Shown in pieces: positions 16 through 58,422 of a DNA stretch of 64,000 nt. The notes below the pieces were generated by a model that worked only from the letters and a program-made list of their open reading frames with translations, was not told where the DNA came from and did not search any database. The translations under genes and the position numbers were made by a program. The DNA is from an uncultured Chloroflexia bacterium. Lineage in GTDB: Bacteria > Chloroflexota > Limnocylindria > Limnocylindrales > CSP1-4. The stretch lies in the NCBI GenBank assembly GCA_963712745.1, contig CAVQJC010000001.1, forward strand, positions 160,001 to 224,000, written 5' to 3'. The stretch's first letter is position 1. Every line of letters begins with the position of its first letter.

Positions 16-209
16 ACGGCGGCTCAACAACGCGAGGCGGCGGATCTACTGGAGCTGGCCCCGACCGACCGCATCCAGTCGGTCACGGATGCTGAAGACG
101 GGGTTGCCCAGAGTGGCCTGGAGTCGCCCACAGAGGGCATCCCACGAGGGGATGGTGGCTCCGGGCGCGCCCGGAGGGATTTCGAACCCCGACCAATCGG
201 CCCACAGCC
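16..209 (+). repeat. att-like unit A: integrase C-terminal tail + conserved arm + degenerate antisense tRNA 3' half
   Basis: Frame from 16 reads TAAQQREAADLLELAPTDRIQSVTDAEDGVAQSGLESPTEGIPRGDGGSG, matching unit B. TGGCTCCGG at 156 and CGACCAATCGG..ACAGCC at 190-209 match the antisense tRNA-Asn at 58348. Confidence 0.85.
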
Positions 210-366
210 CGATTTCGCGAGACGGTGGCGGCGCGAGACCTGTGGCAGAGGACGAGACGGGGCGGCTCTGGCGGGGCGGCCCCAAGGTCCGCGGAGTAGG
301 CGAGGAGGACGTCAGGATGGTGGGGGCGCGGAACTCGACGCTCGAACCAGATAGCAGCCACCGCGT

Positions 367-1473
367 CTACCCCCTGCGCGTGCCGAACCCTACGCGTTGC
401 GCGTGCGGTCCGGTGGAGCCCCGGAGGACTAACGTGGTGCGCAGTACCACTGTCTGCGCCGGCTCGTCTACCTTCCGGATGCGCCGAAGCAACTGCCGTG
501 TGGCTGTCACGCCGATGTCGTGGACAGGCTGCGCGATGACCGTCAACGGTGGCTCGATGAAGGTCGCCCAAGGCAGATCATCGAAGCTCACGACGGAAAT
601 GTCCCCCGGAATCTTGAGCCCCAGTTCCCGCACGGCGTCGAGCGCTCCCAAGGTCATGGTTTCGTCCGTGGCCACGATCGCGGTCGGCGCCGACGGCGAG
701 GCCAACGCCTTCAACGTCGCTCGACGGGCGTCCGCACGCTCGTACCTCGCCTGGAGGATGAGCGCGTCGGCCACGGGCAGACCTGCCTCCCGCATCGCGG
801 AAGCCCAACCAAGGAGGCGCAGCCGGCTCGGTATCCCGCTATTGGGAGCAAGGCGCAAAGTAGAGAGTTCGACCGCCGGCATGGCGGAACTCGCTTCCAC
901 CACGATGGCCACGCGCGAATGGCCGAGACGAACAAGATGTCGGACCGCGTTGCGCGCCGCCGCCGCGTTGTCGACCACGACCATGTCGCAATCCAGCGCG
1001 GGTGCGCCACGATCGAACAAGACGAGGGGAATCCCACGCTCCCCGACCTCCTGCAGGTGCGCGGTCTCCATTGGGTCGGCGGGCGCGACCAGCATCCCAT
1101 CCACCCGCTTGTCGAGGAGCACACCGACGGCTGCGCGCTCGGCCGCGAGATCCTCGTCCGTATTCGTGAGGATGACCTCGAACCCCGCGCCATGTGCCGT
1201 GTCCGCGATCCCCCGGACGGCCTGCGAGAAAAAGGCGAGCTGGATGTCCGACACCACCACCCCGAGCGTGCGGGTGCTCCCCGAGCGGATTCCGCGCGCG
1301 AGAGTGTTAGGCCGGTACCGCAGGCGGCTCGCGGCGGTGAGCACTCGTTCGTGCGCGCCCGCGCTCGCGGGCCCATAGCCGCCAAGGACGCGTGCCGCGG
1401 TCGCCCGGGACACGCCGGCCTCATGGGCTACGTCATCAAGGGTGGGATGTCCGGTTCGGGACCGTGGGCTCAT
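367..1473 (-). CDS. LacI-family transcriptional regulator
   Basis: N-terminal HTH TLDDVAHEAGVSRATAARVL, YRPNTLARG hinge, C-terminal sugar-binding domain (PGDISVVSFDD, PPLTVIAQP). Confidence 0.95.
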   Translation of the reverse strand: MSPRSRTGHPTLDDVAHEAGVSRATAARVLGGYGPASAGAHERVLTAASRLRYRPNTLARGIRSGSTRTLGVVVSDIQLAFFSQAVRGIADTAHGAGFEVILTNTDEDLAAERAAVGVLLDKRVDGMLVAPADPMETAHLQEVGERGIPLVLFDRGAPALDCDMVVVDNAAAARNAVRHLVRLGHSRVAIVVEASSAMPAVELSTLRLAPNSGIPSRLRLLGWASAMREAGLPVADALILQARYERADARRATLKALASPSAPTAIVATDETMTLGALDAVRELGLKIPGDISVVSFDDLPWATFIEPPLTVIAQPVHDIGVTATRQLLRRIRKVDEPAQTVVLRTTLVLRGSTGPHAQRVGFGTRRG

Positions 1474-1535
1474 TGGTCACTCGATTACAGCGTAGCGGGG
1501 TCACCGCCATCGCGACACAGGCACGGGTGCTCCCG

Positions 1536-2426
1536 CTACTTGCCAAAGCCCTCGGATAGACCCCGGATGAACTGTCGCTGGCTGATCAGGAACAGGATGA
1601 TGATGGGGATCGAGGCGAGGACGAGGGCCGCGAACAGGACCGGCCAATCGGAGAGGACCCGTCCCTTCATCAGGAGCAGGCCCACCGGCAGCGTCTTGAG
1701 GTCGGTATCGTTGATGAAGACGAGCGCGAACGCGAACTCGTTCCACGCGAACAGCGCCTGAAGCAGTGCCGCGGACACGATGATGGGGCGCGACAGCGGC
1801 ATGATGATGAACCAGAACGCCTGCCAGTTGCTCGCGCCATCCACGATGGCTGCATCCTCCATCTCGCGCGATATGGTGATCATGTAGGCGCGGATGAGGA
1901 ACACCGTGAACGGGATGCGAAACGCCGTGTACAGGATGATGAGCGCCCAGTAGGTGTTGAAGATGCCGAGTGTCTGGAGGAGCCTGAACAGCGGGATGAG
2001 CGCCACCGCGGGGGCCAGCATCATGCCCCCCAAGATGAACACGGTGATGGCTCTGGCGAAGGGGATCTGGTGGCGCGCAAGGGCGTACGCGGCCATCGAG
2101 CTGAACAGGACTACGGTGACCACCGAGGCGCTCGTGACGATGACGCTGTTGAACAGGTACCGCACGACACCCAGGTCCCATGCCTGACGATAGTTCTCCC
2201 AGCGCAGCTCGGATGGCAGGCCCCACGGGTTGCCGAACAGCTCCAGGTTCGATTTGAACCCGTTGAGGATCGCCCATGCCATGGGGTAGACGATGGCAAC
2301 GACGAGTACGATCAGCACGACCCAGGCGACGGTGCGGGTGATGGCAGGCCCGACGCCGATACCGGTCCGCGATACACGTGCGACGCCGGACCTGCTCGAA
2401 GGATCGCGAGTGATGCCCCCAGCCAT
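1536..2426 (-). CDS. Carbohydrate ABC transporter permease (MalG-like)
   Basis: EAA loop EMEDAAIVDGASNWQAFW, AWNEF, TLPVGL. Start MAGG at 2426 overlaps the upstream TGA. Confidence 0.93.
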   Translation of the reverse strand: MAGGITRDPSSRSGVARVSRTGIGVGPAITRTVAWVVLIVLVVAIVYPMAWAILNGFKSNLELFGNPWGLPSELRWENYRQAWDLGVVRYLFNSVIVTSASVVTVVLFSSMAAYALARHQIPFARAITVFILGGMMLAPAVALIPLFRLLQTLGIFNTYWALIILYTAFRIPFTVFLIRAYMITISREMEDAAIVDGASNWQAFWFIIMPLSRPIIVSAALLQALFAWNEFAFALVFINDTDLKTLPVGLLLMKGRVLSDWPVLFAALVLASIPIIILFLISQRQFIRGLSEGFGK

Positions 2427-3316
2427 CAGAACTGCACCATCCTGCCGCGGGCGATGAAGAGCTGGACGATCGCCGCCCCCATGGTGATGACGAAGATGAC
2501 CACCGCGATCGCGGATGCGTAGCCGAACTGGTCGTTGAAGAAGGCGGACTTGTAGAGCCAGGACGCCAGGGTGTGGCTGGAATTGTTGGGCCCGCCAGCC
2601 GTCATCACCCATACCTCGTTGAAGACGAGGAACGCGCCCGAGATCGTGATGATCGTCGCGAGCAGGGTCATCTGGCGGACGAGCGGCACCGTGATGTGAC
2701 GGAATGCGGCGACCCGGGACGCCCCATCGAGATAGGCAGACTCATACAGGTCTCGAGGGATCCGCTGCATGGCCACGATGAACAGCACCATCATGTAGCC
2801 CACGTTCTGCCACTGGCTCATGGCGATGATCGACCAGATCGCTGTAGCGGATTCGCCGAGCCACGAGTGCTTCAGTCCCTCGAGGCCCACCAAGTCCAGG
2901 AACCCGTTGACGAGTCCGATCTGCGGGTTGTAGATGAACGTGAACAGGAGGCCAACGACGGTGAGCGACAGCACGGCCGGAACGAAGTAGACCGTGCGCA
3001 GGAAACCCTTGAGCGGGCCGTGCACGAGCTCTTCGAGGACCGCCGCGAGCACGAGTCCGCCGGCGACCTGGCACACGACCGAGACGACCGCATAGGCGGT
3101 GTTGTTGAAGAGCGCTCCCCAGGCGACCGAATCCGCCGCCAACTCACGATAATTGTCGAGCCCCACGAACGCTTCCTGCGTGAACGGGCTCCACCGGTAG
3201 AGGCTCAGGCGGAGGTTCTCGAGGATCGGGTAGTAGGCGAAGACCGCGAGCAGCACGACTGCAGGAGCGACCCATAGGAGCATGGACCATCGGCCGATTC
3301 GGGTCGTTCCGGGCAT
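2426..3316 (-). CDS. Carbohydrate ABC transporter permease (MalF-like)
   Basis: FVGLDNY, DLYESAYLDGAS, TAGGP, FGYASA motifs. Confidence 0.95.
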   Translation of the reverse strand: MPGTTRIGRWSMLLWVAPAVVLLAVFAYYPILENLRLSLYRWSPFTQEAFVGLDNYRELAADSVAWGALFNNTAYAVVSVVCQVAGGLVLAAVLEELVHGPLKGFLRTVYFVPAVLSLTVVGLLFTFIYNPQIGLVNGFLDLVGLEGLKHSWLGESATAIWSIIAMSQWQNVGYMMVLFIVAMQRIPRDLYESAYLDGASRVAAFRHITVPLVRQMTLLATIITISGAFLVFNEVWVMTAGGPNNSSHTLASWLYKSAFFNDQFGYASAIAVVIFVITMGAAIVQLFIARGRMVQF

Positions 3317-3383
3317 TGCCTGGTCGTTACTGCTGCAGCGATCGTGCGGGAGGCAGGGTCACCGCCTCCCGCGCTCTGGTGGG

Positions 3384-4716
3384 CTATTCGGCGGTGGAGG
3401 CCTTGGCGCTGACCGCCGCCGCCTGGACATCCGCGACCACGTCGGCGGGCGTCTTCGTCCCGTCGAGCATCGCCTGGACGCCGTCGAGGTACGCATTGGC
3501 GACATCGATGTGGGTCACGGTGTCGAGCCAGATGGCCATGCTCGACGCCTCGTTGATGTCCTCCACCACGCGCACGTTCTGCGGGAACGTGTTCTCGGCG
3601 GTCGCGGAGCCGATCGATCGGGCTCAGCCAGCCTAGCTGCGAGGTGAGCTGCTGGGCGTTGTCAAGGCTCGTAAGGAACTTGAGGAAGTCGATCGCGATA
3701 TCGGTGTGCTCGGAGCTCGGGTTGACGAGGAAACCGTCGGGGGCCCCTTCGAGCGTCCCCGTGTCGCCAGCGGCATCCGCCGGCGGAGGGAGCTTGATGA
3801 AGTCCCAGTTCGCAGCGATCTCGGGGGGCGCCCCACCGGACTCGGTGAGGACCTGGTACTCGACCGCCTCGATGTAGTGCATGGGGGAGTTGCCGGTCAG
3901 GAAGTTCGCCTGGGCGAGCTCGTGTGAGACCCCGTTCGCACCCTGTGTCAGGCAGCGGCTGTTGATGTCAGCGAAAGCCTGAAGTGCCGCCAGGTAGCCA
4001 GGGTCGGTGAAGTCGCCGGTGGCGGGATCGTAGTCGGTGGCGAGGATGTCCGCTGGGACGTAGTAGGGGTTGAGCTGGGTCATGAAGTGGATCGCCGGCC
4101 AGCCGAACTGGTTGCCGAAGGCGATCGGGTCCGTGATGCCGTTCGCCTTGAAGGCGTCACAGGCGGAGAGGAGCTCTTCCAGCGTCGTCGGGACCGCGAC
4201 CCCGTTGTCCTCGAACATCTGGTTGTTGAAGACGAGGTACTTCGCGTCGAGCGTGATGGGCACGCCGTAGAGCTGGCCGTCATAGGTGTACGCGTCGAGC
4301 GCGGCGGGGATGAAGCTCGCCTGCCAGTCTCCGGTCATATCCTCGGTGAGGTCCTGCGCGAGTCCACCGCGGACGAACTTCTTGGTGAAATCGCCGGCCC
4401 ACGAGAAGTAGACGTCCGGCAGGGTGTTCGAGGCGGCCAGGACCCGTAGCTTGTCCTTGACGCCCTGGTCGGTCTCGGCTGTGACGTCGATGGTGACTCC
4501 GGGGTTCGCCTCCTCGTAGGCGGCGACCACCGAGTCGAAGTAGGGCGTGTAGCGGGGGTCGCCATACTTGTGCAGGAAGCTGATGGTGCCCTCGAGATCG
4601 TCCTGGGCGACGGCGGCGGGCACGACCGAGACGGCCGCGACGATGCCAAGGGTCGTTGCTGCTATCAGAGCGCGGAGAACTCGCCACCGCGGGCTGCCGT
4701 TGGCTTGTGATCTCAT
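3384..4716 (-). pseudogene. Carbohydrate ABC substrate-binding protein, frameshifted near 3615
   Basis: Signal peptide ..PAAVAQD, GQLYGVP. The SBP C-terminus (..DGVQAMLDGTKTPADVV..) is in another frame (ORF 3384-3575), with the shift at CGATCGATCG. May be a sequencing indel. Confidence 0.85.
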
Positions 4717-4741
4717 GAGATACCTCCTCTACCTGCTGCTC

Positions 4742-5598
4742 CTAGGTGCTGGCCGGAGCCCCGACGGGTGGCCCATCGGTGGTCCTCGGCGCAGGCTGAA
4801 CGTCCTCGATCTGGTGGCCAAAGGCCCCGTACGAGGTACATATGGTGGCCGCGAGCTCCGCGGCAGATGCGAGCGAGACGTCGAACGGCTCGTCGCGAAT
4901 GATCCCCACCAGGACGCGGGCGATGAACGCGTCGCCTGCTCCGAGCGTGTCGAGGACCCGGGCGGGGAAGGCTGGCTGTCTCAAGATTCGTCGGCCGTCG
5001 GAAAGCAGTGCTTCCGAGGCACCGCGGGTAGCGAGGACCAGCCGGGGCCCGGCCGCATGGATCAGCTCGATCCAGGCCTTCGCGTCGTCATCGCCGAGGT
5101 CAGCCAGGCTGAACTCGGCGATGGTCACGTGCGGCAGGATCGGATCCAGGTACGCACGGTCACGGCGGACCGAGAAGTCGAACGAGAGCGGCGCCACTTC
5201 AGCGAGCAGGTCGAGCTGGTCCTCGAGGTAGCTGGACTCGCTGCTGTGGATGATGCTGGCCTGGCTCAGGAAAGCGAGGTCGTCTTCGGAGAGCTGAAAG
5301 CACGACACCCCCGTGTATCCCCACCAAGGAACTCGCGGTTTCCGTGGACGAGCCCCACATCCGCGTATGCGTTGGGCCCCGACACGACGCGGACATGCGA
5401 AGCGTCGACTTGCTCGGCGTGGATGACTTCGAGGACATGGCGTCCGGCACGGTCGTCGCCCACAACACCGACGTAGGCGGCCTTTATACCTGCTCGCTGG
5501 GCGTGAACCGCCACATTGAGGGCTTGTCCACCAGGAAACATCACGCCCAGATCGCGGTAGCGGTCGACGACGTTGTCGCCTACGCCAGCCAGCTGCAT
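4742..5598 (-). pseudogene. PfkB-family kinase, fructoselysine-6-kinase (FrlD)-like, frameshifted near 5310
   Basis: N-terminus MQLAGVGDNVVDRY..FPGGQALNVAV is in one frame and C-terminal DTLGAGDAF in another. The shift is at a G5 run. Confidence 0.85.
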
Positions 5599-5600
5599 GG

Positions 5601-6650
5601 CTAGTACGGCACCTTGAACATGTAGCGGCGATTCTGAAGGTCGTGGCCGGTGGCCGCCTCGAAGTGCTGGGCGAGCCGGCTCATGACCGCGTCGAGCGCG
5701 AAGTGGGAAGCGAACGGCCGCATCTCCGCGTCGACGCCGGGCAGGCTCAGGTCGCGCGAATCGACGTAGAACGCGCGGCGCGTGAAGCGCTCGAGGAACG
5801 CCTTTGCGCGCTCGTCGATGGGACGGGTCGACTCCTCGCCCAGGTACTGGATGACCGCCGTGTCCTCGGTCACCACCTCCATCGCTCCATGCAGGAACTC
5901 CGCCGAGTCGAAGCTCGCGGCGTCCTTCCACTGCATCTCCTGCAAGTAGCACATGGCAAGGCAGTACGCGGTCCCCTGGTTTGGGCCCGCACCGATGATG
6001 TAGATGACCGGCGCATCCCGGAGCTCGCGCGCGATCGTCGCGTTGAGGTCCTCGGTCTCCTGGCACGCGGTGAGCAGCGCGGTTGGAAGTGCCGCCAGTG
6101 TCCCGATATGGTGGTCATATTCCGCGGCGTCCATATCACCCGACTCCCTCAGCAATGCGAGGCCGAGTTGCTCGAGCTGGATGCCCTTGGGGTCGCCGAC
6201 CCCGGAGTCGTCCTCGTAGCTCCACGCGATGTCAGCGGCCGAGGCCAGCGGGCTGTCCGCCTTCCTCGTTACCGCGGCGACCGTGGCGCCACGCTCCCGC
6301 GCGAAGCGGGCGGCCTCGACCACCTCGGGAGTGGTCCCGGTGTTCGAGGCGAGGACCGCGAGCGACGCGTCCCCTAGACCGGCCGGATCGCGGTATATGA
6401 ACTCGTTCGCGGAGAGAGCGAAGGCGGAAAGGCGGGTGGCCCTGCGCTCGAGCAGGTACTGGAGGCCGGCGTGGGCCAGGAGGCCCCCACCGCTGCCCAA
6501 CAGGTACAGGTTGCGAAGGCCGCGCCTGAACGACTCGGTGGCGAACTCCTCGATCTCCGCGCGCTGGCCGAGCGCACGGAGCATGCCGGGTCGGGGCTCG
6601 GTCGGGAGCGGCTTGAGCTGGGTGACAGGCGGCAGGACATCTGTGGTCAT
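5601..6650 (-). CDS. SIS-domain protein, fructoselysine-6-phosphate deglycase (FrlB)-like
   Basis: GSGGG, ASNTGTTPEVV, CYLQEMQW, AEFLHGAMEV, C-terminal RRYMFKVPY. Confidence 0.88.
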   Translation of the reverse strand: MTTDVLPPVTQLKPLPTEPRPGMLRALGQRAEIEEFATESFRRGLRNLYLLGSGGGLLAHAGLQYLLERRATRLSAFALSANEFIYRDPAGLGDASLAVLASNTGTTPEVVEAARFARERGATVAAVTRKADSPLASAADIAWSYEDDSGVGDPKGIQLEQLGLALLRESGDMDAAEYDHHIGTLAALPTALLTACQETEDLNATIARELRDAPVIYIIGAGPNQGTAYCLAMCYLQEMQWKDAASFDSAEFLHGAMEVVTEDTAVIQYLGEESTRPIDERAKAFLERFTRRAFYVDSRDLSLPGVDAEMRPFASHFALDAVMSRLAQHFEAATGHDLQNRRYMFKVPY

Positions 6651-6687
6651 CGGCAGGTGGCTCCTCGGGTGCGGCGAAGGTGATGTA

Positions 6688-7758
6688 TCACGGCCAAGTC
6701 GCGTCAGGGCCAGCCGCCAGGATGCGGTGACCCATGTAGACCCGCTCGTCGAGGTCGGTGATGCCACGCAGAAGCGCGGAATAGACCGTGAACCATTGGA
6801 GGGGCACGAGCAGCACGAACGGCGCGAACTGGGGGTGAAGATCGCCGTAGTCGGCGGCATCGAACACGAGCACGCGGGACCCGCCGGCCTCCGCGGACGC
6901 GATCGAGCGTTCCGTCATCGAGCGCGAGGCATCGGTGCCGAGTAGAGCGACGATATCCAGCCGCGAGCGCTCGAGGGCCTCGACCGGGCCGTGGCGGAAC
7001 TCGGCGGACTCGATGATGGAGCCCGCCACGCGGATGTTCTCCATGAACACCGTCAGTGCGAACTTGTAGCCGAGACCGTACAGCGGTCCACTCGCGAGCA
7101 CGGTAATCGCCGTGGCGCTCAGGAACGAGCGCGCCCGCTCGAGGCCAGCAACGTCGCCGTCGCGATATGCGCGGCCGAGCAGAGCCGGCAGCTCCGGAAG
7201 TTGAGCGAGGGCACGTTCAGCATCCTCGCGGTTGGCACTTTCGGTCTGACGGGCGAGTTCCAGTGCAAACATCGTGACCGCCGCGAGAGGCAGGATGTAC
7301 AGGCCCGTGGAGTCGTAGTCGATCAGCTCGGTGGCCTCGGCGGCCATGGGACTTTGGCCACGGTGGGCGATAGCCACGGTGTGCGCTCCGGCGTCATTCG
7401 CGTGCCGGAGCGCTGCCAGGGTGTCCTCTGTGGCGCCAGAGTAGGAAGCCAGGAACACGAGTGACCGACTACCCAGCCGCAGCGGGCTACGCCAGATCAG
7501 CTCATAGCTCGTGAGGACGTCGGACGGGACCGGGGTGTAGCGGTCGGTCAGGTACTTGCCGGAAAACATGTTCGACCAAGAGCCGCCACTGCCCACGAAG
7601 TAGACATGGTCGAACTCGCCCGCGGCGGTTCGGCGAGCCAATTGCCGAATCCGCTCACCCTGCTCCGAGAGGAACGTCGCGAGGTCGGTCTCCAGGCGGG
7701 GTGCCGTGAACAGATCACTGTGCTTCGCGGCCTCCACCAGTGTGGACAACTCAGGCAT
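6688..7758 (-). CDS. Second SIS-domain sugar-phosphate deglycase/isomerase (FrlB-like)
   Basis: FVGSGGS, ASYSGATEDT, EFRHGPVE, ERVYMG. Confidence 0.85.
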   Translation of the reverse strand: MPELSTLVEAAKHSDLFTAPRLETDLATFLSEQGERIRQLARRTAAGEFDHVYFVGSGGSWSNMFSGKYLTDRYTPVPSDVLTSYELIWRSPLRLGSRSLVFLASYSGATEDTLAALRHANDAGAHTVAIAHRGQSPMAAEATELIDYDSTGLYILPLAAVTMFALELARQTESANREDAERALAQLPELPALLGRAYRDGDVAGLERARSFLSATAITVLASGPLYGLGYKFALTVFMENIRVAGSIIESAEFRHGPVEALERSRLDIVALLGTDASRSMTERSIASAEAGGSRVLVFDAADYGDLHPQFAPFVLLVPLQWFTVYSALLRGITDLDERVYMGHRILAAGPDATWP

Positions 7759-7845
7759 CGACCTACCTCCGGTAGTACGCGAGGACCGCTGCATAGGCGT
7801 GAGTCGAGTCATCGCACGCCGTTCGAACTTGCGGGCCATGCCATT

Positions 7846-7863
7846 AGTGAGAACGTTCTCACT
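7846..7863. promoter_or_regulatory. Putative LacI-family operator; sigma70-like -35 TTGACA on the minus strand at 7900-7905
   Basis: Perfect 18-bp palindrome AGTGAGAACGTTCTCACT with a central CG, upstream of the operon that ends in the LacI gene. Confidence 0.75.
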
Positions 7864-10332: not shown

Positions 10333-10352
10333 GGGATGCCCGGCACCAGGGC

Positions 10353-12752: not shown

Positions 12753-12781
12753 GCGTCGCGCTCCCTCCTTGTGGATTCTTC

Positions 12782-29425: not shown

Positions 29426-29578
29426 GAGGCCCAAGGCGTCGTGCCGCAACCGCGACGACCGTCCTTGTCGCACATGGGGACAGGTCGAGCACGAACCCGG
29501 GTCAAGTCCAGCAGGTTGTGTAACGGCGACGTGGCATGTCCTGGGACTTGACCTCGACGTCCTCGACCAGTGGGCGAC

Positions 29579-29718
29579 CAGTCAGGCACGCAGTCAGTCA
29601 CGGAACCCGAAAACGCGGTCGTTCGGAGTCGGACGGAGTCGCCCACAGAGGGCATCCCACGAGGGAAAGGTGGCTCCGGCGGTAAGATCCGAACGTACGA
29701 CCGATCGGTTGACAGCCG
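29579..29718 (+). repeat. att-like unit C: arm + degenerate antisense tRNA-Asn 3' half
   Basis: 29579-29684 matches 56909-57014 at about 99/106 nt. 29671-29718 matches the tRNA antisense at about 43/48. Confidence 0.92.
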
Positions 29719-30147
29719 CTTGGCTCCGACAGTCCGACCAGGAGACACTTCCTTTCCTGAGGTGCACTCACGCCACGCATGAACGGCCAATGCGTGGCGT
29801 GTGAGCCCAGACCCATCAGCGCCTACTCGACCGCCTGAGCGCCGGACGGCCAGCGCTACTGGCTGACCAGGATGATGATCAACCGCTGTTGGCTTGACAG
29901 CGTGGAACCCCTGCGCCTCGTCAGCGACGGAGCGCAGCCGGCTCCGGACTGGGACGGTCCGCCGCGGGCACCGGGTGGCATCGGCACCTACGAGCCGGAC
30001 GGGAACGGCAAGTGGTGGCCGACCAGGCTGTCCTCGCGAGTGGCTTCGAGCCATGCAAGGCCTGTCGCCGACCGCGGTCTCACAGAAGCTGACGGGACTG
30101 TTCAGCGAGGTCGCAGGCGCCTACCGTCTGGGCGATGCCCGGTCCGT

Positions 30148-48424: not shown

Positions 48425-48435
48425 GTCGGGAGCTC

Positions 48436-50360: not shown

Positions 50361-51019
50361 GAGACGCCAAGGCTCTCGAGCTGGTCGAAACCCTCCGGCG
50401 TGTCGGATACAGCGCCGTCGTTTCTGACTGTTGCGATCAAGTCGGACTGCGCGACCAGACGATGTCGGCGGGAATCACCCCCGTGTCGGGTGGTCCGGGT
50501 GTCTTGGTCGGCTTTGCCCGGCCCGTGCTGAGCGTCGCCGTGGACGGGATTCCGGACGAGCCCTATCGCGCAGAGATCGACTTCATCGACTCGCTTGGCC
50601 CGGACGACGTGGTGGCCGCAACGGTCGAGGCTCCGGGGGCGTTCTGGGGAGAGCTCTTCTCAACCGCTGCCAAGGCTCGTGGCGCGGCCGGTGTCGTAGT
50701 CGATGGTCTGGTGCGAGATCAGACACGCATCAGGCAACTGGGGTTCCCCGTCTATGCACGTGGCGCCCGGCCGACCGATAGCCTCGGCCGCATCTCCATC
50801 GGCGCATGCGATACCGCCACCCTCATCGGCGGGATCAGTGTGGGCCCGGGGGACCTTGTGGTGGCCGACGTCGACGGCGTGACGGTGGTGCCCGTGGATG
50901 CGATCGAGGAGGTCGCAACACGCGCGATTGAGAAAGCGACCACTGAGAACCACGCTCGCGAGATGCTGGAGGGCGGTGCGTTGCTGCGCGATGCGTGGGA
51001 CCGGTTCCGGGTGTTGTGA
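50357..51019 (+). CDS. RraA-family protein (HMG/CHA aldolase-like)
   Basis: AVVSD, AFWGEL, VVDGLVRD, PGDLVVADVDGV. Confidence 0.9.
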   Translation: MRDAKALELVETLRRVGYSAVVSDCCDQVGLRDQTMSAGITPVSGGPGVLVGFARPVLSVAVDGIPDEPYRAEIDFIDSLGPDDVVAATVEAPGAFWGELFSTAAKARGAAGVVVDGLVRDQTRIRQLGFPVYARGARPTDSLGRISIGACDTATLIGGISVGPGDLVVADVDGVTVVPVDAIEEVATRAIEKATTENHAREMLEGGALLRDAWDRFRVL

Positions 51020-51897
51020 CGGGCCTCGCCGGGATCTACGCCCCGATCTGCACGCCGTTCCTTCCCGACGAGGAGCTCGATCTCAGGGGCCTGCGCGCGA
51101 ACCTCGAGCGCTACGCGGATACGGGGGTCCATGGTCTGCTCGCGCTGGGCAGCAACGGCGAGAACCGAAGCCTGGACGAGGCCGAGCGCCTGAAGGTGCT
51201 CGACGCGGTGGTGTGTCACAAGGGCCGCGACCAGGCCGTGATGGCCGGCGCTACCTACGACGCACAGCGTTCCGCGGAGCGGTTCCTGGCCGCTGCTGCC
51301 GACCTCGGCGCCGACTACGGACTGGTCCTCTCACCCGGCTACCACCGCAAGCAGATGACCGAGGAGGTCCTGTACCGCTTCTTCTCGACCCTCGCGGACG
51401 TGTCGGCGATTCCGCTGATCGTATACAACGCCCCCGGCTTCAACGGCATCACGCTCACGCCCGAGTTGGTCGGGCGGCTGTCGGAACACCCCAACATCGC
51501 TGGGCTCAAGGACAGCGCCGCGGCCGGGTTCGAGCACTTCCTGCCCCTCCAGCGTCCGGACTTCGCCGTGCTCGCGGGCTCCGCCGACTTCCTCTTCGCG
51601 GCCATGATCGGCGGCGCACCCGGCGGCACGGTCTCGCTGGCGAACTCGTTCCCAGCACTCGCGTTGGCGTTGTACGAGCTGGGACGGTCGCGCAACTCGG
51701 AGGACGGAACCGTCCTGCAGGAGCGGGTGAGCCGCATCAACCGCGCCATCTCCGGGGCCTTTGGCGTAGCCGGGGTCAAGGCGGCCATGGATCTGGCCGG
51801 ACTCGTGGGCGGCATCCCTCGACGACCACTGCTCCCCTTGACCGAGAACGAGCGCCAGCAGTTGCGTGCCACCCTGGAGGCGGAAGGGCTCATCTGA
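51016..51897 (+). CDS. Dihydrodipicolinate-synthase-family aldolase/dehydratase (HOGA/KDG-aldolase-like)
   Basis: LGSNGE, IVYNAPG, HPNIAGLKDS. Confidence 0.9.
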   Translation: MTGLAGIYAPICTPFLPDEELDLRGLRANLERYADTGVHGLLALGSNGENRSLDEAERLKVLDAVVCHKGRDQAVMAGATYDAQRSAERFLAAAADLGADYGLVLSPGYHRKQMTEEVLYRFFSTLADVSAIPLIVYNAPGFNGITLTPELVGRLSEHPNIAGLKDSAAAGFEHFLPLQRPDFAVLAGSADFLFAAMIGGAPGGTVSLANSFPALALALYELGRSRNSEDGTVLQERVSRINRAISGAFGVAGVKAAMDLAGLVGGIPRRPLLPLTENERQQLRATLEAEGLI

Positions 51898-53264
51898 TGG
51901 GCACCGACATCCTGGCACTCGACGTGGGAACGAGTGGGCTTAAGGCAGGGGTCTATACCTCGGATCTGCGGCTCGAGCGCGCGGTAACCCACGGGTACGA
52001 GCCGGACATCAGTGCCGGCGGCCAGGCGGACATATGGCCCGAACGGTGGTGGTCGGCCATCACCGCTGCCTGCGCCGAGCTTGGGTCCTCCCTTGCGGAC
52101 GTCAGCGTCATCAGCCTGGGCGTGACCACTCCTGGCCTGACGCCGATGGCAGCGGATGGCACCGCCCTGGGTCCGGCCATCCTGATGATGGACGGACGCT
52201 CGCGGAACCAGGCGGCGGCCATTCGCAAAGCCGTGGGCGAGGAACGCTTCCTGGCACAGGCCTGCAACTTGCCGGTGTCAGGCGGATCGTCGCTCGCGAG
52301 CATCCTCTGGATCCGCGACGAGCGTCCCGAGGTCTGGGCCAAGGCCGCGATCTTCGGACACACCAACACGTACGTGGTAAAGCGGCTGACGGGGCAGTGG
52401 GCCATCGACCCGTCCACGACATCGATCACCGGCCTGTACGCAACCGCGCGCAACGATCTGACCTGGATTGCCGAGGTGCTCGAGGCGGCCCATCTCGACC
52501 CTGCGAGACTGCCGCCTCTGATGCACTCGTTCGACCCGGTCGGGCGGATCTTACCAGCGGTCGCCGATGCGCTCGGATTGCCTCGCGAGGCGGTGGTGTT
52601 GTGCGGTGCGAATGACGCAGCCCTCGCAGCATGGTCAGGCGGGCTGTCCGAGCCCGGTGATGCCAACATCATCAGCGGTACCACCGACATCGCCAATGTC
52701 TGTACCGACGCGCCCGTGGCCTCGCCAGACTTCAACGTCCGCTGTCATGTCGTCCCCGGGCGCTGGCTCACGTTCTTCGTGCTCAACACCGGTGGCGTGG
52801 CCTATGACTGGTTCCGGCGCACCTTCTGCCGCGAGTTTGCGGTTGACGACTTCTACGCCGAGTACCTACCCGGCGTGTTAGAGGGCTTCCTCGGCGATCC
52901 CGCGGTCGATGGGCGAGAGGCCGAGCTGCCGACCTACCTGCCCTTCCTCGCCGGCAGCCGCTACTCGACCGAGCCACTTACGGCGTCATTCTCCGGTATC
53001 GGGCTCCAGACCACGCGAGAAGACCTGCTCCTGGCCATCGTGTGCGGCAACCTGCAGTACCTCGGCCAGCACCTCGAGCAGGTCGCCGCGCACGTACGCG
53101 TCAACCCGACGGTCGGCATCTCCGGTGGCGCAGCCCGGATCAGGGGCATGCTCGAAGCACGTCGGCGCTGGACGGGTGACTTCGAGTACGTCTTCCAGGA
53201 CCAATCGTCGCTGCTCGGGGCGGCCATGCTCGGGCAGGTGTATCAGCGTGGTGGCGCGGTATGA
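51897..53264 (+). CDS. FGGY-family sugar kinase (xylulokinase-like)
   Basis: LDVGTSGLK, DGRS, GANDA, YLPFLAGSR, SGG. Confidence 0.9.
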   Translation: MGTDILALDVGTSGLKAGVYTSDLRLERAVTHGYEPDISAGGQADIWPERWWSAITAACAELGSSLADVSVISLGVTTPGLTPMAADGTALGPAILMMDGRSRNQAAAIRKAVGEERFLAQACNLPVSGGSSLASILWIRDERPEVWAKAAIFGHTNTYVVKRLTGQWAIDPSTTSITGLYATARNDLTWIAEVLEAAHLDPARLPPLMHSFDPVGRILPAVADALGLPREAVVLCGANDAALAAWSGGLSEPGDANIISGTTDIANVCTDAPVASPDFNVRCHVVPGRWLTFFVLNTGGVAYDWFRRTFCREFAVDDFYAEYLPGVLEGFLGDPAVDGREAELPTYLPFLAGSRYSTEPLTASFSGIGLQTTREDLLLAIVCGNLQYLGQHLEQVAAHVRVNPTVGISGGAARIRGMLEARRRWTGDFEYVFQDQSSLLGAAMLGQVYQRGGAV

Positions 53265-53289
53265 GGCAGGCAAGGAGCGTGTGATAGCG

Positions 53290-54135
53290 ATGGCAGCGAC
53301 CAGAACCATGGTGGCCACGGCCATGCAGGGCGGCTACGCCGTGCCGGCGATCAACGTCGTCGACCAGCTGTCCATGGAAGCGGTGCTGGCGGCGGCCCAG
53401 GAGCTGCGCAGCCCGGTCATCGTGCAGACCTCGGTCAAGACCGTGCGCTCCATCGGCCTCGAGGTGCTGAAGGCGATGTGGGACACGACGGCCGCCTCGG
53501 TCGACGTGCCCGTGGCGCTGCACCTGGACCACTGCCCCGACCGAGGGGTCATCAGCGACTGCCTCGCCGCAGGCTGGGACTCGGTGCTGTTCGATGCACA
53601 CGAGCTCTCGGTCGAGGAGAACGAGCGCCAGTGCATCGAGGTCGTGGCCGAGGCGCGGCGCCACGGTGCCGACGTGGAGGGCGAGATCGAGGGCATCCGC
53701 GGCGTGGAGGACGGCATCGGTTCCGACGTTGCCAGCGTCATCCGGTCGCTCGAGGTCGCCGTCGGATTCATCGAGCGCACGGGCGTGGATATCTTCGCCC
53801 CGGCCATCGGCAACGCCCACGGCATGTACGCCGCACAGCCGACGCTCGACCACCAGCGCATCAGCGACCTCGTCGCGGCCACCGGCATCCCCATGGCGCT
53901 GCACGGCGGCACCGGCCTCAGCCCCGAGCAGTTCCGCGACCTGATCGCCCGCGGCTGCGCCAAGGTCAACGTCTCGACCGCCCTGAAGATGGCCTACATC
54001 GAGGCCAGCCGGGCCTACCTCGATGAGCACCCCGACGCGGCCGACCCGCCCAGGCTCTTCGCCCACGTGCGCGAGGCAGTGATGGAGATGACGCGGGCAC
54101 ACATCCGCATGTTCGGCTCGGAGGGGAGGGCATGA
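53290..54135 (+). CDS. Class II ketose-bisphosphate aldolase
   Basis: YAVPAIN, LHLDH, VEGEI, AIGNAHG, ALHGGTG, KVNVST. Confidence 0.93.
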   Translation: MAATRTMVATAMQGGYAVPAINVVDQLSMEAVLAAAQELRSPVIVQTSVKTVRSIGLEVLKAMWDTTAASVDVPVALHLDHCPDRGVISDCLAAGWDSVLFDAHELSVEENERQCIEVVAEARRHGADVEGEIEGIRGVEDGIGSDVASVIRSLEVAVGFIERTGVDIFAPAIGNAHGMYAAQPTLDHQRISDLVAATGIPMALHGGTGLSPEQFRDLIARGCAKVNVSTALKMAYIEASRAYLDEHPDAADPPRLFAHVREAVMEMTRAHIRMFGSEGRA

Positions 54136-55019
54136 GCGCGCTCCTCTTCGACTGCGACGGCGTCCTCGCCGACACCGAGCGCCACGGGCACCTGCCCGCC
54201 TTCAACCGGGCCTTCGCCGAGTTCGGGTTGCCCGTCCGCTGGTCGGAGGAGGAATACGGCAGGGCCCTGCATATCGGTGGCGGCAAGGAGCGCCTGGCCT
54301 CCCTGCTCACCCCCGAGCTCGTGGCCGAGGCTGGTCTGCCGACCGACCCGGAGGGCCAGGCTGTCGAGGTCGCGAGGTGGCACCGGCGCAAGACCGAGCT
54401 GTATGTCGAGCTGGTCCGCGCGGGCCGGCTGCCACCGCGCCCTGGCATCGCCCGCATCGTGGACGAAGCGCGCGTCGCAGGATGGCAGCTCGCGGTCTGC
54501 TCGACCTCGGCCGAGCCCTCGGTCCGCGCCATCCTGGAGACGGCGGTCGGGACCGACGCGGCGGCGGACTTCCTCGTGCTGGCCGGGGACATCGTGGCGG
54601 CCAAGAAGCCGGCGCCGGACATCTACGAGCTCGCGCTCGAGCGGCTCGGCATCGAGCCTGAGGAGGCGGTCGTCGTCGAGGACTCGCGCAACGGGCTGCT
54701 CGCAGCCCACGCCGCTGGGCTGGCCACCGTCGTCACTGTCAACGGCTACACCCGCGACCAGGACTTCGGCGAGGCCGCCCTCGTGGTCTCGTCACTGGGC
54801 GACCCTGGGGCTGAGCCTATCGAGGTGCTGGCCGATCGGGCAGGAGTGGGGGCAGGAGCCTACCTGACGCTGCCGGACCTCCAGGCATGCCGTCCGTGCC
54901 AGCCGAAGCAGCGGGCCCGAAACCTCATCCCAGAAGTACATCCGGTCCATGCAGCGAAGGGAGCATCACATGAACTCGATCGAACGTGTCGCAGCGGCGA
55001 TCGAACTGCGGAACCCTGA
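54132..55019 (+). CDS. HAD-IA phosphatase, CbbY-like
   Basis: FDCDGVLADTERHGH, GGGKER, KKPAPDIY, EDSRNG. Confidence 0.9.
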   Translation: MSALLFDCDGVLADTERHGHLPAFNRAFAEFGLPVRWSEEEYGRALHIGGGKERLASLLTPELVAEAGLPTDPEGQAVEVARWHRRKTELYVELVRAGRLPPRPGIARIVDEARVAGWQLAVCSTSAEPSVRAILETAVGTDAAADFLVLAGDIVAAKKPAPDIYELALERLGIEPEEAVVVEDSRNGLLAAHAAGLATVVTVNGYTRDQDFGEAALVVSSLGDPGAEPIEVLADRAGVGAGAYLTLPDLQACRPCQPKQRARNLIPEVHPVHAAKGASHELDRTCRSGDRTAEP

Positions 55020-56002
55020 CCGGGTTCCCGTAGATCTACACAACTTCCTGCCTGCTGCGCAGGCATTTGGACGCCCGTTCACGGAGACGTTCAGGGACGG
55101 GGAGTTGCTGGCCCAGGCCATGCTGGACGCGTGGCGCGAGTTCGGCCACGACATGATCCTCCTCGAGAACGGGACCGGCTGCAATGCCGAGGCCTGCGGG
55201 GCCGAGGTCAGCTATCGCGATGATGCCTCGCCCGTGGCCGAGAAGCCGCTCATCTCATCGCTCGACCAAGTCGCAGATCTGGTCGTGCCGGACCCTGAGA
55301 CGACCTTCCCACAGAATGAGATCCTCAAGGCCACGAGCGATCCTGTCCAAGGAAATCGGGGACCAAGCCTGGATCGTGGCGCGAGCGGACCAGGGACCGT
55401 TCGACCTTGCCGCCCAGCTCTTCGGGATGGAGGACCTGATGATGGCCATGGCCATGGGCGAGACCGAGGGCGTGAAGACGCTGCTCTCCTACTGCCGTGA
55501 GGTCACCACTCGCTACGCCTACGCATTGCTGGACGCAGGCGGTCGCTCGACGTCGATCGGAGAGCCGGTCTCCGGTCCCGGCCTCATCTCGCCGAAGGAC
55601 TACCAGCGCTTCGCGATGCCGCAGCAGCGCCAGCTCGTGGAGGACGTCACAGCCCACGGTGGCATCGTCGCTAACCACATCTGCGGCGACACGATCCCGA
55701 TCTTCGACGACTTCATGGCCACAGGTGCCCAGATCCTGGAGATCGACCACGTCACCGACAAGCAGGCGGCCAAGGACCTCGCTCGTGGCCGCACCTGTCT
55801 GCTCGGTACGCTCGACACCAACACCATCACCATGGGCACGCCCGCCGAGGTCGAGGACGAAGTGCGTGAAGCGATCGCCATCCTGGCACCCGATAGCGGC
55901 TTCATCATCGGTCCGGGCTGCGCGCTCGGGCCGGAGACCCCGGCGGACAACATCCATGCGCTGATTGAGGCTGCGCGCAAGTACGGGACCTATCCAGTCT
56001 GA
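54970..56002 (+). pseudogene. MtaA/CmuA-type (URO-D superfamily) methyltransferase, frameshifted near 55335
   Basis: MNSIERV..PDRVPV, AEACGA, then QGPFDLA, HICGD, GPGCAL (complete HxC..C zinc motif) in another frame. Confidence 0.85.
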
Positions 56003-56171
56003 CCCGGTCACGGCGAGAGGACTGCTCACTCGGCAAGTCAGTCGGCAGGGCCAGAGCGATGGAACTCACGCCTAGGATGCGAAGACTGCTCCCGTCAATC
56101 AACCTCGACCGGCATCAGCTCGGCGGACCCATCCAGGTTCGGACAATCTGCAAGGAGGAGGGACACGATCC

Positions 56172-56804
56172 ATGGCTGACCTGACCGCACTGACCGCGGC
56201 CGTCGAAGCGGGCAACCGGGCCGAGGCGGTGAGCCTCACCCAGGCCGCCATCGACGCGGGTACCCCACCCCAGGAGATCCTCGACGCCATGACGACGGCG
56301 ATGACCGAGGTCGGCCGCAAGTTCGCCTGCAACGAGGGCGTGTACGTGCCCGAGATGCTCATCAGCGCCCACGCCATGAAGGAAGCCAGTGCGCTGCTCG
56401 AGCCGCTGCTGGCCGCCTCGGGTATCAAGCCCGAGCACACCGCCGTCATCGGCACGGTGCAGGGCGACCTCCACGACATCGGCAAGAACCTCGTGGGCAT
56501 GATGCTGAAAGGCGCCAACTTCGAGATCGTGGACCTGGGCACCAACGTCAGCCCCGAGGCCTTCGCCGAGGCGGCGGTGGAGCACGGCGCCACCATCGTC
56601 GGCATCAGCGCCCTGCTGACGACCACGATGGTGGGCATGAAGGCCGCCGTGGAGGCCATCCGGGCGGCCGACCCCAAGGCCAAGATCCTCGTCGGCGGGG
56701 CGCCCGTGACCGACGAGTTCGCCGCCGAGATCGGCGCCGACGGCTTCGCCAAGGACGCCGCCACCGCGGCCAACGTGGCCCAGGCACTGCTGGCGGCGCG
56801 GTAG
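56172..56804 (+). CDS. Corrinoid (B12-binding) protein, second copy
   Basis: GTVQGDLHDIGKNLV, SALLTTTM, VGGAPVT. Strong RBS AAGGAGG. Confidence 0.95.
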   Translation: MADLTALTAAVEAGNRAEAVSLTQAAIDAGTPPQEILDAMTTAMTEVGRKFACNEGVYVPEMLISAHAMKEASALLEPLLAASGIKPEHTAVIGTVQGDLHDIGKNLVGMMLKGANFEIVDLGTNVSPEAFAEAAVEHGATIVGISALLTTTMVGMKAAVEAIRAADPKAKILVGGAPVTDEFAAEIGADGFAKDAATAANVAQALLAAR

Positions 56805-56863
56805 GGCAGCGAGCAGCACATAGCGCGTGCCCTGGTGGGGCTCCTGAGCAAGTGCCCGATCCG

Positions 56864-57015
56864 CACGATGCCGCGGGTTCGCCCAGATAGGCACCAACTG
56901 GCCAAATCCAGTCAGTCACGCAGTCAGTCACGGAACCCGAAAACGGGGTCGTCCGGAGTGGGACGGAGTCGCCCGTAGAGGGCATTCCACGAGGGAAAGG
57001 TGGCTCCGGCGGTAG
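56864..57015 (+). repeat. att-like unit D (original tRNA-proximal island end): decayed integrase tail + arm + tRNA 3' end
   Basis: Frame HDAAGSPR*APTGQIQSVTQSVTEPENGVVRSGTESPVEGIPRGKGGSGG. Tandem CAGTCAGTCACG x2 at 56909-56932. Confidence 0.92.
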
Positions 57016-58346
57016 TGTCTGAGTTCAGGACATAGGTGACACCTGATAGGTCACAGGTGAGTCGGGACATCGGTGACAGTCCGGTGCATGTCGAAGCATC
57101 GGGTGGCCGTCCTGAAGGTCCTCACGCATCAGTCGTCCGTCACCGCTGCCGCAGCCGAGGTGGGCCTGAGTCGGGGCTACCTGCAGCGACTCCTGCGCCG
57201 CTGCCGCGAGGGCGGACTCGAGGCGCTCGAGCCACGGTCGCGGCGGCCACGTACCAGCCCCGGCCGCATACCCGAGGCGGTCCGCGAGCGCATCGTCGCG
57301 TTGCGCACCGAGCTCACCGCCCAGGGCCTCGATGCCGGCCCCGTCACGATCGTTTGGCACCTCGAGCGCGAAGGGCTCCGCGTGCCTTCGGACTCGACGA
57401 TCCGGCGGGTCCTCCATGCCGCGGGCCTCGTCGTGCCCGAGCCGCGCAAGCGCCCGCGCAGCTCGTGGCACCGCTTCGAGGCCACGATGCCCAACGAGCT
57501 GTGGCAGTCGGACGTGACCCACTGGCGGCTCGCCGATGGGAGCGAGGTCGAGATCTGCTCCTGGCTCGACGACCACGCCCGCTACCTGCTCGACTGCACG
57601 GCCTTCCGACACGTCGACGGTGACGACGTGGTGGCCTCGTTCTGCGCCGCGGGCGAGGCCCACGGTTGGCCCGCGGCCACGCTCACCGACAACGCCGCGG
57701 TCTACACCTCGCGCTTCACGGGCGGGCGCAACGCCTTCGAGTACCTGCTCGCCTACCTCGGTATCCAGCAGAAGAACGGGGCGCCCGGCCATCCCCAGAC
57801 GCAGGGCAAGATCGAGCGCTTCCACCAGACCTTGAAGCGCTGGCTCGCACAGCGAGCCCGCCGCACGGACCATCCCTGAGCTGCAGGCGCAGCTCGATGC
57901 CTTCCGGGCGACCTACGACGAGGAGCGTCCGCACCGGGCCATCGGCCGACGCACCCCGGCCGAGGCCTACCGGGCGAGCCCGAAGGCCCACCCCGCCGGG
58001 CGCGGCGCCCCAGGGCATCTGCGCCTGCGCTACGACCTGGTCGACAAGGGCGGCCGCATCACGTTGCGCCGGGCCGGTCGCCTGCACCACCTGGGGATCG
58101 GGGCCGCCCATGCCCGCAAGCGCGTCCTGGCCATCGTCGATGAGCGCGCGGTCACGGTCGTCGACCTCGGGACCGGCGAGGTCCTCTCAAGCCATCTGAT
58201 CGCGCCCGATCGCGACTACTGGCGCAACCAACGACGAGACCCCGGCCGGTGGCCGGGGTCCCAAGCGACTCGATGACGTCTGAGCTGGTTCATCGGTTGT
58301 CACCGATGTCCCGACTCATCTGTCACCTATGTCGCGACTCATGACA
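57016..58346 (+). mobile_element. IS481-family insertion sequence flanked by a 16-bp direct repeat
   Basis: TGT..ACA ends with repeated GACAT(A/C)GGTGACA subterminal motifs. GTGGCTCCGGCGGTAG is present at 57000-57015 and 58347-58362. Confidence 0.92.
57088..58276 (+). pseudogene. IS481-family DDE transposase, frameshifted near 57855
   Basis: PRSRRPRTSP, PNELWQSD, LDDHAR, LTDNA, PQTQGKIERFHQTLK, then YDEERPHRAI..YWRNQ in another frame. Confidence 0.9.
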
Positions 58347-58347
58347 G

Positions 58348-58422
58348 TGGCTCCGGCGGTAGGATTCGAACCTACGACCAATCGGTTAACAGCCGACCGC
58401 TCTACCACTGAGCTACGCCGGA
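58348..58422 (-). tRNA. tRNA-Asn (GTT) with encoded CCA
   Basis: TCCGGCGTAGCTCAGTGGTAGAGCGGTCGGCTGTTAACCGATTGGTCGTAGGTTCGAATCCTACCGCCGGAGCCA forms a full cloverleaf. Confidence 0.98.

Follow-up and report, generated by a model that had tools for sequence, protein, structure and literature searches.

A 117-kb array of tRNA-Asn 3'-half repeats and integrase tails, probably left by successive island integrations, in an uncultured member of the Chloroflexota

Introduction

[quoted passage not shown] Parts of the literature on such accretion (PMC5704250 and PMC13651849) provide one point of comparison for the locus described here, and another is the tycheposon model for Prochlorococcus, in which, according to the part of the source that we draw upon, newer elements push older ones outward and fragmented integrases occur along with scattered partial tRNAs (10.1101/2020.12.28.424599). 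Here, we describe a 64-kb window from an uncultured member of the Chloroflexota (genome G000, contig C1, positions 160001-224000), in which copies of the 3' half of a tRNA-Asn gene and tails of a tyrosine integrase gene lie between groups of largely catabolic genes. The locus fits the published model of tRNA-seeded island growth, and it would represent an unusually large case of a known kind of island formation.

The locus shares with tycheposons, as the same part of that source presents them, a full tRNA at one end, partial tRNAs between the elements, and adaptive metabolic cargo (10.1101/2020.12.28.424599). It differs from them in belonging to another phylum, in having an integrase that is ≤32% identical to those in phage records and is retained by none of the units, in its size (117 kb, with ~12 scars), and in an integrase frame that overlaps the tRNA. 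As in the accretion of ICEs, IMEs, and CIMEs, tandem elements share attachment (att) sites at one locus, where members lacking recombination genes could be moved by the integrase of a neighbour; in contrast to those systems, no integrase-bearing partner was found in G000, and no conjugation or mobilisation genes were seen in the open reading frames (ORFs) scanned. Like integrons, the locus stacks gene units in one direction at a single recombination site, but it lacks a resident integrase, attI, attC, and a common promoter, its units carry their own regulators, and its repeats are tRNA 3' halves. Finally, HipAB toxin-antitoxin stabilisation has been described for a composite Shewanella island at tRNA-Trp (PMC8978831), where, in the portion of that source used here, hipBA similarly forms part of a composite island next to a tRNA gene and beside a former integrase position, whereas in the Chloroflexota genus studied here the hipBA pair is the whole cargo of a 2-kb unit.

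Materials and methods

Coordinates with the prefix w are positions in the 64-kb window, and all others are given with their contig. The G000 assembly is a metagenome-assembled genome (MAG) with a completeness of 84.55% and a contamination of 5.03%, and its genome-wide scans covered the whole 4.2-Mb assembly. The comparison set comprised 49 genomes of the genus, all from uncultured Chloroflexota, with one genome per species. The repeat model was an nhmmer profile of the 48-nt tRNA-Asn 3' half (the last 48 nt) and was run genome-wide, as were nhmmer models for the P' arm and the P arm, which are the sequences on either side of the repeat in a complete att remnant. The P-arm model was built partly from the site at w18523, so that the score of this site against it is circular. 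The Pfam scan covered 59 ORFs of the window and 40 ORFs upstream of it, and PF00589 and the integrase protein of the congener G007 served as queries in the integrase search of G000. A search of the genus for the insertion sequence (IS) described below returned 30 loci (L050-L079), among which L076 repeats L056. Twenty public sequencing runs from 16 studies hold 0.18-0.44 of the sampled words of w27300-30300; read-level data were Logan contigs from four runs, and such contigs end at any branch of the assembly graph and cannot reveal rare forms.

Results and discussion

As a preliminary description of this DNA had proposed, the array is anchored by an intact tRNA-Asn gene, which is the sole tRNA-Asn among the 47 tRNAs found by ARAGORN in the assembly.

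w58348-58422, minus strand: intact tRNA-Asn(GTT), the array anchor (attB); ARAGORN, and Rfam RF00005 with 75.1 bits

In the genome-wide nhmmer scan, the repeat model gave six matches at E ≤ 1e-12, and every one of them maps to the minus strand of contig C1, toward the 3' side of the tRNA-Asn: the tRNA-Asn itself, w29671-29717, w8429-8473, C1:137325, C1:128064, and C1:101336. The five internal copies span 45-48 nt; the repeats begin at about position 28 of the tRNA and reach its CCA end. Outside the array, a comparable match with the repeat and arm models was limited to one other tRNA gene, on C3. The tRNA-Asn 3'-half copies are confined to the 3' side of tRNA-Asn and to one strand, and they lack the genome-wide scatter in both orientations that the preliminary description had named as a refutation. 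Repeats of this kind, which are restricted to one locus, share one orientation, and have the intact tRNA at one end, are those of tandem tRNA-integrated islands. The array runs from C1:101336 to C1:218347 (117,012 bp) and extends 58 kb beyond the left edge of the window, which makes it about twice as long as the ~57 kb that had been stated. Base composition is uninformative, with 67.5% G+C in the array, 68.5% in the genome, and 65.7-70.3% in the individual segments. Two other origins of the repeats were considered and excluded: a chance or dispersed repeat, by the genome-wide blastn and nhmmer searches; and segmental duplication of cargo, by a self-blast of the array, which gives just the arms, the IS, and one paralogue pair of 68% identity.

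The arm of ~100 bp that several of the repeats share is part of a tyrosine integrase gene, namely its 3' tail, and this gene reads into the tRNA. Translated on the plus strand, the arms yield the C-terminal end of a tyrosine integrase, and the frame runs on into the tRNA fragment. Six such P' arms occur in the genome, on one strand and all within the array (E=2.5e-40 to 3.6e-27), with four in the window (w56866-57014, w29554-29684, w8294-8442, and w33-164) and two upstream of it (C1:127941-128077 and C1:104881-105015). The resemblance between arms that had been noticed at first is confirmed by blastn, which gives 93.5% identity over 107 nt for w29578-29684 and w56908-57014. The arms of w33-164 and C1:127941-128077, which lie 32 kb apart, are nearly identical by eye, and the region around these two that includes a hybrid repeat is 89.2% identical over 195 columns (blastn). 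With the G007 protein as query, the remnants on C1 cover integrase residues 319-421, 342-419, 354-415, and 378-421 (44-103 residues each), the last of which is the tail at w29554-29684. The remnant at C1:128064 retains ~100 residues, including the region of the catalytic tyrosine, but carries an in-frame stop and has the tyrosine itself replaced.

The att-like sites of the window, from the tRNA outward, are as follows.

w56866-57015, minus strand: 15-bp IS-made copy of the tRNA 3' end, then the P' arm of the tRNA-proximal unit (arm model, E=2.5e-40)

w40208-40250, minus strand: weak att-like site with a variant anticodon loop, possibly an old boundary; missed by the repeat model

w38540-38595, minus strand: truncated tRNA 3'-half copy, 25/25 identical, with a second, variant copy before it (blastn, E=2.2e-7; nhmmer, E=1.2e-3 for w38540-38565)

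w35922-35950, minus strand: marginal, truncated tRNA 3'-half copy of ~22-24 nt (blastn, E=0.05; nhmmer, E=0.07 for w35922-35943)

w29554-29807, minus strand: complete att remnant, with P arm (29699-29807), tRNA 3' half (29671-29718, 43/48), and P' arm formed by the integrase tail (29554-29684)

w27611-27656, minus strand: degenerate P arm with the first part of a tRNA-like repeat, forming the distal end of the hipBA unit (P-arm model, E=0.043)

w18523-18640, minus strand: P arm and first ~32 nt of the tRNA 3' half (repeat at w18523-18554, E=1.4; the P arm resembles sites of G009 and G016)

w8294-8476, minus strand: tRNA 3'-half copy (39/48) and P' arm with integrase residues 342-419 (repeat and arm models, G007 integrase match)

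w33-209, minus strand: hybrid tRNA 3'-half copy and P' arm with integrase residues 354-415 (repeat alone, w156-200, E=0.38, followed by a strong arm)

Eight tRNA-like sites had been listed in the preliminary description. Five of them (w156, w8429, w29671, w35921, and w38540) are upheld, the last two as short copies. The sites at w27601 and w40208 are weak and have no match with the repeat model in nhmmer, but the anticodon-loop variant that they carry recurs in a bona fide repeat-plus-arm site of the relative G022, where the homologue of w27611-27656 scores E=4.9e-4 with the P-arm model. The eighth, at w57000, is not an att copy, since w57001-57015 is a 15-bp duplication that flanks an IS at the tRNA 3' end. 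The repeat at w18523-18554 had been overlooked, and homology with G010 stops 260 bp from this site. Further, the arm at w56866-57015 is 97.3% identical to the tRNA-adjacent arm of G021. The acceptor end of the w156 repeat resembles that of tRNA-Arg(TCG), and in our reading it may be the footprint of a tRNA-seeking IS. Most P arms of the G000 array are unrecognisable with the P-arm model. A 9-nt motif is present twice in the P' arms, and three P arms have it at about -60. Enrichment of this motif was tried as a test and was not useful, with 49 matches at ≤1 mismatch in the array against 23 expected, mostly outside the arms.

The earlier observation that no full integrase is present is also confirmed. 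While PF00589 matches at four places in G000, none of these is on C1, and the G007 integrase query finds just the C1 remnants and weak Xer-like matches on C4, so no intact cognate integrase was found in this assembly. The preliminary description had recommended a search for a full-length integrase with the same tail, and such a gene adjoins tRNA-Asn in G007, where it encodes 425 aa (Pfam Phage_integrase) and has a DUF3631 protein and a ResIII helicase in its neighbourhood. A second MAG (locus L044) has an intact integrase, 73% identical to that of G007, at tRNA-Asn beside an HTH_17 protein. An integrase gene thus stands beside the att site in G007 and at L044, and G000 has only tails in this place. 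The G007-type integrase is itself at most 32% identical to integrases in phage records. The HTH_17 protein encoded at w39406-40176 in our window, which was considered as a possible relic of an excision module of the element, resembles that of L044 only in the 50-residue HTH domain.

Among the 49 genomes, the integrase gene is preserved in a graded series. It is intact at the tRNA in G007, interrupted by one stop in G017, split in G004, present as fragments or with internal deletions in G008, G010, and G016, and reduced to a tail in many others. The remnants start anywhere from residue 319 to residue 395 of the 425 aa, as is expected from independent deletions. This genus-wide decay series, from intact element to bare scar, supports the tRNA-seeded island model beyond cyanobacteria and proteobacteria.

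The chromosome on both sides of the array is conserved in the relatives, and on the 5' side of the tRNA it begins with the following segment.

w58544-60285, plus strand: conserved chromosomal flank with a GIDE-like gene and a LemA gene (Pfam)

This flank has a match in 36 of the 49 genomes and adjoins tRNA-Asn in those genus members that were checked, and the far-side flank consists of homologues of C1:90042-99402; the core flanks of the relatives are 72-82% identical to G000 at the DNA level. The distance from the tRNA to the far flank is ~0.15 kb in G024 and 1.6 kb in G013, both of which have no arm and are essentially empty sites, ~28-59 kb in G016, G062, G010, G022, G009, and G008, and 117 kb in G000. 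The locus is therefore variable between conserved flanks and includes empty sites, as is seen for tRNA-integrated islands. Because of the empty sites in relatives, all of the DNA from the tRNA to C1:101336 must be inserted, and the locus is a genus-wide hotspot.

Together, these results make it likely that at least about twelve integrative islands form a tandem array here, having been inserted successively into the single tRNA-Asn and having subsequently decayed. The islands would belong largely to one element family, whose tyrosine integrase gene lies beside the tRNA, is convergent with it, and reads into it. The integrase would recombine the element-borne 3' part of the tRNA, from the anticodon stem to the CCA end, with the tRNA-Asn gene, and every integration would restore the tRNA while displacing the previous 3' half and the older islands outward. 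Following integration, separate deletions would remove the integrase, and any replication or excision genes, from each island. What is left behind would be (i) the cargo, consisting of genes for sugar and amino-sugar catabolism, ABC (ATP-binding cassette) transporters, corrinoid methyltransferases, and toxin-antitoxin pairs, and (ii) a scar composed of a tRNA fragment and an integrase tail. At a later time, an IS481-like element that seeks tRNA 3' ends would have entered between the tRNA and the newest tail. That a tyrosine integrase crossing over near the anticodon loop brought about tandem accretion had been put forward earlier, and this is well supported by the start of the repeats at position ~28, their confinement to the locus in one orientation, the empty sites, and the distances of 0.15-59 kb in relatives. 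In this manner, ~2.8% of the genome of an uncultured member of the Chloroflexota, most of it devoted to carbohydrate catabolism, would have been assembled at one tRNA gene.

Several observations weigh against successive integration and decay, at least in this simple form. First, with a completeness of 84.55%, the assembly could lack the part in which an integrase lies, so that absence of the integrase from the organism is not proven. Second, the identity of the repeats to the tRNA does not fall with distance, being 43, 39, 41, 43, and 42 of 48 at 28.7, 49.9, 81, 90, and 117 kb; a clock-like series with the newest copy nearest to the tRNA is consequently not demonstrated, and the degeneration with distance that had been reported for the long units is contradicted over the whole array. 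Third, the sites at C1:101336, C1:137325, and w38540 have no arm, and accounting for these three takes at least two element families or additional deletions. Fourth, all of the G000 units lack an integrase, even those that were gained after the hipBA unit (3-5% diverged from its copies in other species), which requires that deletion was fast or that some units arrived without the gene. Finally, one and the same integrase-less junction between tail and hipA is found in two species at different positions in the array.

This last point concerns a short unit next to the complete att remnant.

w27954-29425, plus strand: hipB-hipA toxin-antitoxin pair, the cargo of an integrase-less unit of ~2.1 kb (Pfam HTH_3 and HipA_C)

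The nucleotide identity of the hipBA block is 97.3% to G022, 95.2% to G021, and 92.1% to G009, as against 77-82% for the core flanks of these species. The match between G000 and G021 covers 2041 bp and includes the tRNA 3' half, the truncated tail, and an identical tail-hipA junction, and the unit adjoins the functional tRNA in G021 but lies 28.7 kb from the tRNA in G000, with adjacent core genes that are 77% identical. The homology between G000 and G022 breaks inside the distal tRNA-like repeat. While the proximal att site of the unit is good (43/48, with both arms), the distal one is degenerate, and its degenerate form is the same in G000 and G022, which argues against a recent site-specific use of that end. 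In addition, contigs from three public runs exit the block at w27595-27616 into three different flanks, and the support from these exits is weak because Logan contigs end at any graph branch. No joints were reported for the contigs of the four runs, a result that speaks neither for nor against excision. The hipBA data show horizontal movement of the integrase-less unit, or of a larger piece containing it. Three routes would fit these data: an integrase acting in trans, homologous recombination between scars, or a transfer that preceded the loss of the integrase.

Other units are also shared between species. The segment C1:155691-159994 is 94.2% identical to G014, and in both genomes it starts beside an arm. 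The amino-sugar block C1:169374-178265 lies inside the tRNA-Asn array of G010 as well, with a core-like identity of 72-77%. G009 has an integrase-less unit of 3.0 kb (G009:C14:101194-104185) between tRNA-Asn and a repeat without a mismatch to the tRNA over 50 nt. Both arms are there, and a 393-aa protein encoded by the unit carries what we take to be a Fic motif. Blocks shared across species start within ~40-140 bp of the arms, and, by self-blast, the scars are the sole sequences common to otherwise unrelated units of the array.

One possible explanation of this sharing is that some units are non-autonomous, keep their att ends in the manner of CIMEs, and are moved in trans by the integrase of an autonomous relative, which would turn the array into an exchange platform for the genus. 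The identical junction of the hipBA unit at an internal position in G000 and a tRNA-proximal one in G021, with 95.2% identity over 2041 bp next to a core flank at 77%, speaks for this, as do the end of the G022 homology (97.3%) inside the distal tRNA-like repeat, the segment shared with G014 at 94.2% beside an arm in both genomes, the 3.0-kb G009 unit with its perfect 50-nt repeat and two arms, and, weakly, the three different flanks in public runs; the 9-nt motif, twice in the P' arms and at ~-60 in three P arms, may also be placed as arm-type binding sites would be. Nevertheless, we regard this explanation as doubtful. A cognate integrase in the same cell was not found in G000, and across the genus an intact one stands at the tRNA in only 1 of 49 genomes; the tail breakpoints vary among units, which fits independent deletions of full genes; the distal att site of the hipBA unit is degenerate in a form common to G000 and G022; most P arms of the array are unrecognisable; and the cross-species identity could be explained equally well by homologous recombination or by transfer preceding integrase loss. 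The preliminary description had gone further and regarded the locus as an integron-like platform of minimal islands mobilised in trans. This proposal is not supported, in view of the variable tail breakpoints, the full decay series, the lack of a cognate integrase in the G000 assembly, and the multi-gene operons of the units. All stages of integrase decay are seen in the genus, which is the outcome of ordinary decay that had been named beforehand as refuting the proposal, and the integron-like design is unsupported. Mobilisation in trans as such retains a low probability, given that an integrase-less hipBA unit appears to have crossed species. If such units do move, they would offer a natural model for trans-mobilised mini-islands.

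The second route would be homologous recombination after DNA uptake, with the tRNA and the scars as portable anchors, in which case the recent exchanges would need no site-specific recombinase. Suitable anchors are at hand, as the scars (110-190 bp, 80-97% identical) are the only sequences common to unrelated units, G000 and G021 have the same tRNA sequence over 81 nt (100%) and tRNA-adjacent tails with 97.3% identity, and the shared blocks begin within ~40-140 bp of the arms. However, one block boundary between G000 and G022 falls inside the tRNA-like repeat and not in a long identical stretch, the anchors are short and often just ~80% identical, and recombination of this kind is unable to create the array initially. 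As an account of the locus, we therefore judge it improbable, and island integration followed by decay remains our preferred explanation.

The element between the tRNA and the newest tail deserves separate treatment.

w57016-58347, minus strand: IS481-like IS of 1332 bp, directly after the CCA end of tRNA-Asn, with a broken frame (Pfam rve, HTH_32, and HTH_28)

Its transposase scores 202.9 bits against the IS481-family model NF033577, below the cut-off of 224, over model positions 4-249 of 284, in a copy that is frame-shifted; the longest frame of this copy is 272 aa, compared to ~404 aa in 6 of 10 other full-length copies. The element has imperfect inverted ends and a 15-bp direct repeat of the tRNA end. 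In G000, a tRNA-Glu-like gene has a second copy (C6:227556-228761) at its 3' end, and an old IS remnant at C1:105018-105342 abuts another scar made up of 15 bp and an arm; in G014, two copies occupy the corresponding position with respect to tRNA-Asn sequences. Among the loci found across the genus, an intact tRNA ends within a few bases of the left IS end at 12 distinct places (ARAGORN), and the tRNA types at left ends are Asn, Arg-TCG, Arg-TCT, Glu, Ala, Gln, and Cys. Of the 26 distinct left junctions, 24 terminate in CCA, and ~22 have a T-loop motif just upstream (counts by eye). The right side of the IS bears a 14-16-nt copy of a tRNA 3' end. This IS of ~1330 bp inserts specifically at tRNA 3' ends, of at least seven tRNA types across the genus. 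At L053, L054, L055, L057, and L059, the left and right tRNA-end copies derive from different tRNA types, and at some of these mixed-end loci the tRNA body carries the acceptor end of another tRNA, the w156 repeat being such a hybrid. Either the IS may transport ~15 nt of its donor tRNA end, or copies at different tRNAs may recombine. No description of a tRNA-targeting IS481-type element was evident in literature searches, which is not proof that such an element is unpublished. The element may serve as an instructive example of a DDE transposase whose targeting is directed by sequence or structure.

Given this target preference, the repeats themselves could be ascribed to a tRNA-seeking IS, or to local duplication of the tRNA region, and not to an integrase. 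The IS does duplicate the last 15 nt of the tRNA, its remnants abut arms at w57016 and C1:105018, and the w156 repeat has an IS-type hybrid end. However, the IS explains only repeats of ~15 bp, whereas five internal copies span 45-48 nt from the anticodon stem onward and are followed by integrase tails; no cargo is duplicated, and, as relatives with empty sites show, the DNA that separates the repeats has been inserted. We accordingly consider an IS or duplication origin to be highly improbable.

We also entertained the idea that the scars are working cassette ends, such that integrase-less units would move between species through an integrase in trans or through scar recombination, and that the IS would lock arrays by splitting the tRNA from the arm. 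This combined scheme seems unlikely to us at present. If scars did serve as working ends, the tRNA-Asn locus would be a genus-wide exchange platform for catabolic and toxin-antitoxin modules.

Cargo genes and other sequences

The Pfam scan of the window identified the following cargo: LacI, ABC transporter, PfkB, and SIS proteins; GH4-ROK, DegT aminotransferase, and amidohydrolase, together with two ABC systems; ROK, a URO-D-like protein, and a truncated AbiEi; hipBA; Band7, EamA, and PfkB; a beta-CASP RNase and a dienelactone hydrolase; an HTH_17 protein; and a 17-kb block with URO-D-like and B12-binding proteins, gluconolactonase, SDR, an enolase-superfamily enzyme, an ABC system, GntR, RraA-like, DHDPS-like, FGGY, class II aldolase, and HAD. 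Upstream of the window, the scan found TadE/Tad-like proteins, a PKD protein, and an IS110 fragment; an AT3-SGNH acyltransferase, dihydroxyacetone kinase subunits, a class I aldolase, and a CLC channel; an ABC system, Fe-ADH, ALDH, and an M20 peptidase; and TetR, a glycyl-radical enzyme with its activase, GH127, and LacI. The units consist of multi-gene operons that bring along regulators (LacI, ROK, and GntR), and are not promoterless cassettes. No conjugation, replication, or phage families were seen among the ORFs scanned, and for conjugation and phage genes this had been noted before. The gene content first assigned to the modules is mostly as proposed, except for the nucleotidyltransferase-type toxin-antitoxin pair, which was not confirmed; Pfam gives HTH_17 alone at w39406-40176 and nothing at w38696-39346. 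PADLOC, run on eight ORFs of the window, reported just AbiEi for the truncated w26796-27299 and a weak HipA match.

Certain cargo genes recur or are unusual in arrangement. URO-D-like (MtaA-type) and B12-binding corrinoid genes are present in several units (w25374-26525, w40346-40588, w41792-43635, w55376-56804, and C1:141801-142847), and the gene at w56157-56794 has a 91.6%-identical paralogue on C20. The beta-CASP RNase gene at w36091-37621 similarly has an 87%-identical paralogue at C5:364425-365967. The frame at w9361-11607 encodes 748 aa, with a family 4 glycosyl hydrolase and a ROK-family domain, and represents either a true fusion or a merger of two genes in the ORF call. At C1:145463-150765 (L016:5463-10765), a PFL-like glycyl-radical enzyme and a radical-SAM activase adjoin a GH127 beta-L-arabinofuranosidase-like gene.

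Two further sequences were noted at the borders of the locus. Just outside the array, a conserved segment of ~650 bp at C1:99524-100178 (L013:19492-19983, P0002) encodes a 163-aa protein; copies with 84-86% identity lie on C16 and C17, and the segment occurs several times per genome across the genus. In G014, an insertion of ~345 bp between tRNA-Asn and the IS (G014:C10:133122-133473; L039 and L075) has terminal inverted repeats and an 8-bp direct repeat, and by these features it looks like a miniature transposable element.

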